From: Candidatus Bathyarchaeota archaeon
Lineage (GTDB): Archaea; Thermoproteota; Bathyarchaeia; Bathyarchaeales; DTEX01
DNA: 64,000 nt
Assembly (NCBI GenBank): GCA_963714275.1
Contig: CAVQNT010000003.1
Span: 192,001 to 256,000, forward strand
Reading direction: 5' to 3'
This document shows, piece after piece, positions 44,714 through 45,166 of this stretch (within the stretch, counting starts at the first letter, position 1; the number at the start of each line of letters is the position of its first letter). A program made the position numbers and the translations under genes. Below the pieces are notes generated by a model. The model did not search any database and had not been told where the DNA came from. It saw only the letters and a list, made by a program, of their open reading frames with translations.

Positions 44714-44820
44714 ACTACATCAATCAAATTTACTCTATATCTTTGAGCTCACAGAAAAAAAATAGTTAATCGTTAGTTAAGCGGTGATGAGAGAAGCGAT
44801 TAACAACCTTTATGATAAAA

Positions 44821-44956
44821 TGGCGCCGCCGGACGGACTCGAACCGTCGACCTTCGAGTTAACAGCTTCAGCCTCAAAGACACATCGTCTGAGAGTCCGT
44901 TGCTCTACCGAACTGAGCTCACGCCCAAACGCCGTTTACGGTGAATGAACGGCGGC
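44821..44956 (-). tRNA. tRNA-Asn(GTT) with two non-canonical introns (8/9 at 44920-44948; 30/31 at 44867-44896)
   Basis: Removing both inserts gives GCCGCCG-TA-GCTC..GAGC-A-ACGGG-CTGTTAA-CTCGA-AGGTC-GACGG-TTCGAGT-CCGTC-CGGCGGC-G-CCA. Both junctions fold as bulge-helix-bulge. Confidence 0.9.
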
Positions 44957-45088
44957 TCAATTGGCTCGTTTTTCAGCGGCGCATTTTAGTCTGAAAACTG
45001 CACGCTGTATTTAAAGCTTAAGCCCTCGTTCGCAGGGAAAATTCTTAAGTAAGAATCAAACCGAATAATAACTTGAGGAAAGCCTAAA

Positions 45089-45166
45089 GGGCCCGTAGCT
45101 CAGTACGGCTAGAGCGCCAGGCTCATAACCTGTTGGTCCCTGGTTCAAATCCGGGCGGGCCCACCA
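45089..45166 (+). tRNA. tRNA-Ile2(CAT), agmatidine-type (CAT anticodon)
   Basis: The GGGCCCG/CGGGCCC acceptor and A73 are typical of archaeal Ile tRNAs rather than Met. Loop CT-CAT-AA; CCA encoded. Confidence 0.85.

Follow-up and report, generated by a model that had tools for sequence, protein, structure and literature searches.

A tRNA-Asn gene of Bathyarchaeia with an intron at position 8/9 and a leader motif that may hold the acceptor stem open

It is common to regard archaeal tRNA introns as bulge-helix-bulge (BHB) cassettes that are complete in themselves and free to occupy any position. An intron between nucleotides 8 and 9 raises the question of how splicing can proceed at a site where the splice motif has to draw on the acceptor strand itself. 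We addressed this question for the tRNA-Asn(GUU) gene on the minus strand of a 64,000-nucleotide stretch of a Candidatus Bathyarchaeota archaeon genome (assembly GCA_963714275.1, contig CAVQNT010000003.1, positions 192,001 to 256,000), hereafter called the window. As read from its sequence, the gene occupies 44956-44821 and consists of three exons and two introns, which lie at positions 8/9 and 30/31. In its leader lies a GC-rich stretch, here called the leader motif (LM), which duplicates the 5' strand of the acceptor and is for that reason complementary to the 3' strand. The best explanation of the locus, which as a whole we consider reasonably likely, is a two-intron gene in which the LM holds the acceptor open, with splicing followed by RNase P cleavage. 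An initial annotation of this DNA had dealt with the 8/9 insert. The LM was absent from it, and the 30/31 intron was not described, though it lies inside the interval that was covered. The locus is laid out as follows, from promoter to trailer.

45008..45015, minus strand: TATA-like box TTTAAATA, candidate promoter of the tRNA-Asn gene, beginning 33 nt upstream of the LM start.
44974..44982, minus strand: leader motif (LM) GCGCCGCUG, which may stand in for the acceptor 5' strand as a surrogate or decoy and is the complement of C66-C72, G73 and C74 (44831-44823).
44963..44973, minus strand: leader spacer from the LM to the proximal helix, without conserved columns in the family alignment.
44957..44962, minus strand: AAUUGA, the proximal part of the leader, which supplies six bases to the BHB outer helix h by pairing with U12-U17.
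44949..44956, minus strand: exon 1 GCCGCCGU, positions 1-8, colinear with intron-less orthologues.
44920..44948, minus strand: intron 1, 29 nt, position 8/9, containing a hairpin; its GGCG (44925-44922) provides the 3' side of the central helix.
44897..44919, minus strand: exon 2, positions 9-30 (D arm, A26, A27-G30), its limits set by the intron-less loci L026 and L028 and by the start of the Rfam match.
44867..44896, minus strand: intron 2, 30 nt, position 30/31, placed by BHB geometry and intron-less relatives.
44821..44866, minus strand: exon 3, positions 31-76, with G31, the loop CUGUUAA, the T arm, the acceptor 3' strand CGGCGGC, G73 and an encoded CCA.
44811..44820, minus strand: T-rich trailer UUUUAUCAUA, directly 3' of the CCA and probably a termination signal.

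The exons are well formed as a tRNA, with a 7-bp acceptor stem, a T arm (100% of alignment cells paired), G73 and CCA. The anticodon GUU lies in a 7-nt loop, CUGUUAA, with U33 and A37, which together with the discriminator G73 we take to mark a tRNA-Asn. Intron-less orthologues read GCCGCCGUAGCUCAG unbroken, and the joined exons, GCCGCCGU+AGCUCAG and ACGG+G, equal the uninterrupted sequence of the intron-less loci L026 and L028. Because these orthologues are contiguous at both places, both intron junctions are fixed. The orthologues are themselves tRNA-Asn genes, which, along with the loop and G73, upholds the initial assignment of the locus to tRNA-Asn(GTT).

Standard tRNA finders had been expected to miss this gene, and both programs used here did. 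ARAGORN made no call at the locus, though it found five other tRNAs in the window, and three intron settings did not change this; nor was the locus reported by Rfam at its gathering score. Rfam in E-value mode gives a local tRNA match of 23.9 bits (threshold, 29), which starts exactly at A9 (44919) and omits 33 nt in the anticodon arm. For the sequence with intron 1 spliced out, ARAGORN proposed a tRNA-Glu(CUC) with a long variable arm, an identity ruled out by the intron-less orthologues, which are Asn. Run with introns on the 91%-complete assembly, the same program lists 38 tRNAs, none of them Asn, His, Tyr or Trp. A direct scan of the assembly found a single locus that combines a CUGUUAA loop with a real T arm, namely this gene, and no intact intron-less tRNA-Asn elsewhere. 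We regard it as nearly certain that this is a tRNA-Asn(GUU) gene with BHB introns at 8/9 and 30/31, and take it to be functional and the organism's only one.

The initial annotation had placed a 29-nt insert between U8 and A9 at 44920-44948, coordinates that were confirmed on the minus strand, and had described a strict BHB around it, which holds throughout. The central helix (H) pairs C3G4C5C6 (44954-44951) with GGCG (44925-44922), four bases before the intron end, in 4/4 positions. The bulges, G7-U8|U and U-G|A9, measure 3 nt each, and the intron closes in an inner hairpin, CCG-UAAA-CGG. The outer helix (h) joins AAUUGA and G1C2 (44962-44955) to G10-U17 (44918-44911) over 8 bp, including one U.G pair and six leader pairs. 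Exon 1 is thereby divided among three roles, with G1-C2 in helix h, C3-C6 as the central-helix strand and G7-U8 in bulge 1. As had also been stated, neither the acceptor stem nor the D stem can form in this fold. The 8/9 site thus presents a 4-bp central helix, two 3-nt bulges on opposite strands and flanking helices, as BHB introns do, with the qualification that the inner helix beside the bulges (h') is just 2 bp long and followed by a 2x2 internal loop. BHB motifs are cut after the second bulge base, consistent with the junctions drawn from the intron-less orthologues. An exhaustive BHB search of 44990-44800 ranked these cut sites first (H = 4, h = 8, h' = 2). When the cut sites were held fixed and leader plus intron were subjected to 100,000 composition-preserving shuffles, H = 4 arose in 1392, H = 4 with h' of at least 2 in 213, h of at least 8 in 288, and all three together in 1 of the 100,000.

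Two full-length paralogues of the splicing endonuclease EndA are encoded in the genome, in the regions of C6:521817-522071 and C2:182722-182976, each with the N- and C-terminal endonuclease domains (PF01974 and PF02778). Paralogue 1 is closest to the catalytic chain of Aeropyrum pernix (3P1Z_B) and keeps GIDHAP, retaining the His that is Ala in 3AJV_B; paralogue 2 is without that His. This two-paralogue pattern points to a heterotetramer of crenarchaeal (alpha-beta) type, the form of EndA that passages of two papers link to non-canonical introns (PMC5829648; PMC4090602). An RNase P RNA was found as well (194 bits). Judging from motif and context, the 29-nt insert is very probably an intron removed by EndA splicing at 8/9.

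Intron 2 has a BHB of its own, with a central helix of C25-C28 and GCUG that contains one A27.C mismatch, bulges GG|A and AA|G, and an h' of CUC/GAG. Its position follows from the intron-less loci L026 and L028, which read ACGGG-CUGUUAA. Across 96 loci, the central helix pairs at 4/4 positions in 89, the outer helix h always measures 2 bp and the inner helix h' reaches 3 bp or more in 94; every locus with an 8/9 insert also carries the 30/31 intron. Placement at 29/30 or 31/32 was ruled out by the ACGGG of L026 and L028 together with the 4/4 central helix of the 30/31 frame in 89/96 loci. Separately, ACGGACUC (A27-G30 and the first four bases of intron 2; 44900-44893) perfectly complements GAGUCCGU (T loop/T stem; 44840-44833), both on the minus strand, and the resulting 8-bp helix is part of the RNAfold minimum free energy (MFE) structure; relatives keep only part of it. 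Additional tRNA-Asn inserts occur in some relatives: one follows the anticodon loop, at what appears to be 37/38, and another interrupts the T arm. The loci in question are L033, L036, L037, L040 and others of one family, as well as L011, L015, L018, L020, L021, L024 and L029, and some of the genes concerned appear to carry four introns.

To place the 8/9 intron in its lineage, tRNA-Asn genes were collected at several depths. A DNA search of 41 related genomes recovered homologues in 30, most with an insert of diverged sequence at the same site and six without an 8/9 insert. Among 401 genomes of Bathyarchaeia, the pattern of exon 1, 15 to 45 nt and the D arm matched in 159 and the contiguous, insert-free pattern in 129, the two forms being largely complementary by family. 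Seventy insert-pattern loci were retrieved, comprising 67 true tRNA-Asn genes, two chance matches and one locus that was too short. In all, 121 distinct loci, gathered by a fixed acceptor pattern, were parsed into 89 with an 8/9 insert (18-42 nt) and 32 contiguous ones. Hand mapping of loci to family labels verified the insert in 16 families of Bathyarchaeia. The 131 genomes sampled from other classes of the phylum gave four intron-like matches, of which three (in two families) have the same architecture and one is false. Two assemblies hold two tRNA-Asn loci each, G197 (L088 and L089) and G233 (L118 and an insert locus). In G233 one gene has the 8/9 insert and the other is without it, which either true paralogy or a mixed bin could explain.

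The elements of the motif differ in how well they are kept. Central-helix pairs 1, 3 and 4 are formed in 89/89 insert loci and pair 2 (C5) in 45 of 89 (51%). The h' pairs 1 and 2 beside the bulges are paired in 99% and 96%, through 3 and 5 pair types, respectively, with slid controls giving 0.24-0.37 for pair 2; h' shows real covariation within otherwise unalignable intron sequence. Across the 89 loci, h is at least 4 bp in 74 and just 2-3 bp in 15, and h' is at least 2 bp in 84. In the outer helix, C2:G10 and G1:C11 are invariant. Leader pairing in intron loci stands at 93% for -1:U12, 87% for -2:C13 and 35% for -3:A14 (62%, 75% and 56% at -1, -2 and -3 in intron-less loci). The six loci of the window's genus (L001-L006) have h of 8, 8, 8, 6, 6 and 5, and the six-base leader share of the outer helix is a genus feature, not a class-wide one. 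The initial annotation had suggested looking in related Bathyarchaeia for the same insert and for leader/D-arm covariation: the insert recurs in the 89 loci, and the pairing is maintained at -1 and -2 and not beyond. Its proposal that the leader acts as a splicing element is thus borne out only in part, as far as the proximal helix goes. The six leader pairs are real here and in the genus, class-wide just -1 and -2 are kept, and the strongest evidence for a leader role comes from the distal LM.

It is this distal LM, not the long proximal helix, that is the conserved leader element. The motif lies 5-25 nt upstream of G1 across loci. A GCCGC[CT] copy is found within -60 to -3 in 88 of the 89 intron loci and an 8-nt version in the remaining one, giving 89/89. 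In many lineages the LM is a literal copy of exon 1, and in the family alignment it is invariant, which the spacer is not. RNAalifold forms the helix between the LM and the acceptor 3' strand in 14/14 aligned sequences, the only changes being C-to-U (U.G). In the window this helix comprises 9 bp in the RNAfold MFE structure, and 99.1% of its alignment cells are paired. For the full proposed fold (LM helix, both BHBs and T arm), 93.5% of cells are paired versus 28-45% with slid partners. Controls for the LM were the intron-less loci and a duplex ranking within the genome itself; reversing the upstream sequence gave a void control, because the core motif has the same letters in either direction.

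Among the intron-less loci, the LM occurs in 3/32. Two of these belong to a genus whose sister genus retains the intron, and the remaining members of that intron-less genus keep a long leader in which the motif has decayed, as expected from relaxed selection after intron loss. The loci L105-L114, all intron-less and from one genus with an intron-keeping sister genus (L016), have retained a long leader, with the TATA-like box at -55 and leader/D-arm complementarity that reaches 8-10 bp; most show a decayed acceptor-copy motif, L111 and L112 preserving it intact. From its sequence, this group looks like a recent and precise loss of the 8/9 intron.

The LM also keeps a constant relation to the promoter. 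It starts 26-36 nt (mode, 30-33) past the start of a TTTAAATA-like box in 77/89 intron loci, a spacing that, by archaeal promoter geometry, puts the transcript start at the LM. The transcript probably begins there. In the intron-less genes the box stands 29-55 nt from G1 (34-40 nt in seven of the 32). A tRNA-Met(CAU) gene (window 45089-45163, plus strand) is divergent from the tRNA-Asn gene at a distance of 133 nt from G1 to G1, and this one short intergenic region must carry both promoters.

A second case in the same genome, outside the window, is the tRNA-Arg(UCU) gene at C2:207810-207937 (minus strand), which has an intron between G9 and G10. Read from its sequence, the central helix pairs C4-G7 with CGGG and h is just 1 bp. 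The 9/10 junction is fixed by intron-less relatives, comparison with which replaced a placement at 8/9; the relatives' loci examined, with and without the insert, are L182-L203. The Arg leader also carries a motif, about 22 nt past a TATA-like box. It differs from the Asn LM and is approximately the complement of the gene's own T-stem 3' strand and acceptor 3' strand. The duplex of leader and 3' tail reaches -20.8 to -25.1 kcal/mol in 12/12 Arg(UCU) insert loci; of nine insert-less loci, eight lack the motif and range from -4.7 to -8.7 kcal/mol, and one (L196, an intermediate) gives -17.4 kcal/mol. When 43 tRNA candidates of the genome were ranked by the same duplex, Arg(UCU) came first (-20.8 kcal/mol) and Asn second (-16.1 kcal/mol), followed by the next candidate at -13.4 kcal/mol; genes with introns elsewhere in the tRNA range from -3.3 to -11.2 kcal/mol. 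Taken together, the Arg and Asn motifs and this ranking indicate that the motif follows the tRNA's own sequence and accompanies only those BHBs that consume the acceptor 5' strand. A function of the LM as a DNA-level promoter or initiator element was rejected as its main role, given that the motif of the Arg gene differs and matches its own 3' strand. An intron-less tRNA-Asp gene (C6:229060-229134) has an 8-nt run in its leader, UGGCGCUU, 9 nt before G1, that complements the last acceptor bases and G73-CCA. Its leader duplex with positions 61-73 amounts to -10.6 kcal/mol and may be due to chance.

Folding models show what the LM could achieve. The 7-bp GC acceptor duplex is worth -14.1 kcal/mol versus -20.0 kcal/mol for the LM duplex. 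In partition functions of full transcripts, the acceptor stem has a probability below 0.5 in 89/89 loci (median, 0.0), and the LM occupies the acceptor 3' strand in 88/89. Deleting the LM in silico raises the acceptor stem above 0.5 in 66/89 loci (median, 0.85).

We propose the following course of events. Transcription would start at the LM, the copy of the acceptor 5' strand. In vivo, we infer, the LM would base-pair with G73, C74 and the 3' strand of the acceptor and so release nucleotides 1-8. The released C3-C6 could then pair with the intron GGCG as the central 4-bp helix, while the outer helix would arise from G1-C2 and the last leader bases on one strand and the 5' side of the D arm on the other, leaving U8|U and G|A9 each within a 3-nt bulge. 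The second BHB would use the 3' side of the D stem, so that both introns are presented in one non-cloverleaf fold. A heterotetrameric EndA, composed of one catalytic and one His-less paralogue, would cut both BHBs, and a ligase would join the exons. The D stem and the true acceptor stem would form only after splicing, the latter by strand exchange with the LM, and RNase P would remove the entire leader last. The LM would be needed because the 7-bp GC acceptor stem would otherwise outcompete the 4-bp central helix. Splicing before RNase P would be the logical order, since early removal of the leader would delete both helper elements. We hold this decoy action of the LM to be somewhat likely.

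Several observations weigh against this proposal. The acceptor stem of the window locus has a probability of 0.02 even without the LM, and the LM-less precursor has an MFE of -54.3 kcal/mol versus -51.6 kcal/mol with the acceptor stem forced. The LM may thus be redundant here, and in these models the long proximal helix and the LM look partly redundant with each other. Across the insert loci, C5.A mismatches occur in 43/89, where the intron reads GACG, not GGCG. In those loci the intron tetranucleotide pairs perfectly with C6-G7-U8-U, a competing register, and it is this shifted register, with the tetranucleotide on C6-G7-U8-U, that RNAfold and RNAalifold favor. The first BHB register lies 3.8 kcal/mol above the local MFE in the window (medians, +5.1 kcal/mol for GGCG and +9.5 kcal/mol for GACG loci) and is the MFE in 2/83 GGCG/GACG loci, so that it is not the preferred fold. 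The designed fold with the LM helix and both BHBs comes to -47.9 versus an MFE of -68.7 kcal/mol. An LM helix that is stronger than the acceptor stem also means that release of the LM needs explaining. Covariation between LM and acceptor is seen in the Asn-versus-Arg comparison alone, the Asn loci having been gathered by a fixed acceptor pattern, and the loci are related by descent, so their counts overstate independence. The energy deficit is shared by the 30/31 BHB, whose position is already on record (median, +4.8 kcal/mol; MFE in 0/96). For this reason we attribute it to the limits of the energy model or to induced fit and do not count it against splicing; being the preferred free fold may perhaps not be a defining feature of a BHB.

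In a rival account, the 8/9 insert is a genuine EndA intron for which the leader elements are dispensable. The LM would then have a different use, such as shielding the 3' end and CCA from nucleases or premature aminoacylation, offering modification enzymes a pre-formed acceptor-like/T-arm minihelix, or holding back RNase P; alternatively, it could be a conserved relic of the way in which the intron arose, for example by duplication of the 5' end of the gene. Besides the already disfavored acceptor stem of the window, this account draws on the position of the LM next to the T stem, on which it could stack as an acceptor stem does, and on the literal exon 1 copies in many lineages, as a duplication would leave them. 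A by-product, however, would not persist in 89/89 loci beside a diverging spacer, nor decay after intron loss, and a general mask of the 3' end would be expected on other tRNAs, yet among the 43 candidates only the 8/9 and 9/10 genes have the motif. The modelled return of the acceptor stem in 66/89 loci upon LM deletion likewise counts against this account. We consider a dispensable leader unlikely.

The competing register suggests another possibility, namely that the intron is removed without a classical BHB, with a broad-specificity EndA acting either on each splice site separately in relaxed hBH/HBh' contexts or by induced fit from the more stable shifted hairpin, the strict BHB of the window being incidental. 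The C5.A mismatches in 43/89 loci, the 5-10 kcal/mol by which the alternative register is favored, the outer helices of 2-3 bp in 15/89 loci and the 1-bp h of the Arg 9/10 intron all fit such an account, and enzymes of this type cut relaxed motifs according to passages of PMC4090602. Against it, the frame of both bulges relative to the 4-nt helix is maintained in 89/89 loci, with pairs 1, 3 and 4 at 100%, and the motif of the window is perfect; we judge this reading improbable. That the gene is a decaying or unexpressed pseudogene, or keeps its insert in the mature RNA, is very improbable: the silence of standard finders would suit a pseudogene, but this is the sole Asn gene of the assembly, its exons are perfectly tRNA-like, its architecture is kept over many families, and the structure of the tRNA core does not tolerate extra nucleotides between U8 and A9.

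The arrangement proposed here, with the LM as a decoy strand, can be set against known systems. The non-canonical intron positions named in the available passages of PMC4090602 run from 20/21 to 59/60 and include 30/31, the extreme case being 3/4 in Thermoproteales. As described there, such introns resemble the present one in being BHB-bounded and off 37/38, in having non-cloverleaf precursors and several introns per gene, and in occurring in hosts with an alpha-beta EndA. The 3/4 introns lie so near the 5' end that they must also use leader bases, and tRNAscan-SE 2.0 adds 60 nt of flank to candidates, catching introns near the ends, as stated in passages of PMC8450103. Since both are known, the use of leader bases in a BHB is implicit in prior work. 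What sets the 8/9 intron apart from the sporadic non-canonical introns is its retention across a whole class, together with a distal leader element devoted to it.

Split and permuted tRNA genes (Nanoarchaeum, Caldivirga, Thermofilum and Cyanidioschyzon) are alike in that sequences outside the tRNA pair to build the EndA substrate; in the relevant passages of PMC4090602 and PMC4033280, the leader pairs with a leader or trailer to form a BHB and is removed by EndA. The tRNA-Asn gene is unlike them, being colinear and in one piece. Its LM pairs with exon positions 66-74, no bulge adjoins the helix, and RNase P would remove the motif, so that leader pairing of the split or permuted type is not what this locus shows. 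By analogy, the LM also recalls anti-terminator/terminator leaders, in which one strand has two exclusive partners and the partner transcribed first decides the fold. The LM, however, would imply an obligatory order of processing, with no ligand or regulatory switch. According to a motif-free Asgard census of tRNA intervening sequences (bioRxiv 10.64898/2026.10.13.758758), many non-canonical inserts, chiefly those of the D arm, are overlooked by standard annotation. It concerns another phylum, the word "leader" has 0 occurrences in that text, and positions are given only in its supplements.

The literature search found no text naming 8/9 or 9/10, with slashed positions being unsearchable and figures, supplements and the catalogues of Marck and Grosjean (2003) and Sugahara (2007, 2008) outside its scope. 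Nor did it turn up any account of an acceptor strand copied in a leader, and a search on tRNA introns of Bathyarchaeota or Bathyarchaeia gave nothing relevant. With slightly better than even confidence, we suggest that Bathyarchaeia and some neighboring lineages possess a previously undescribed cis-acting element of pre-tRNAs, a leader-encoded surrogate acceptor strand that, being transcribed first, would capture the acceptor 3' strand, license introns intruding on the junction of acceptor and D arm, at 8/9 (Asn) and 9/10 (Arg), and impose an obligatory sequence of splicing, strand exchange and RNase P cleavage.

For annotation, the consequence is that the only tRNA-Asn gene of a large and abundant sediment class is invisible to ARAGORN and Rfam, which distorts tRNA counts used for the quality of metagenome-assembled genomes as well as work on codon usage. 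Under-calling probably affects the tRNA set of this lineage widely. A scan of the window's own genome for acceptor and T arms also gave long candidates with D-region inserts, for example C2:623203-623366, C3:138493-138628 and C2:557651-557770.

A dedicated 5' leader helper is found in two tRNAs of different sequence. If it works as proposed, an archaeal pre-tRNA leader can have a function of its own in folding, the order of splicing before RNase P would be hard-wired in the sequence, and a leader copy of the acceptor strand would offer a simple signature for hidden 5'-proximal introns. It would also explain the class-long persistence of introns at positions where the mature fold would hide the splice motif.

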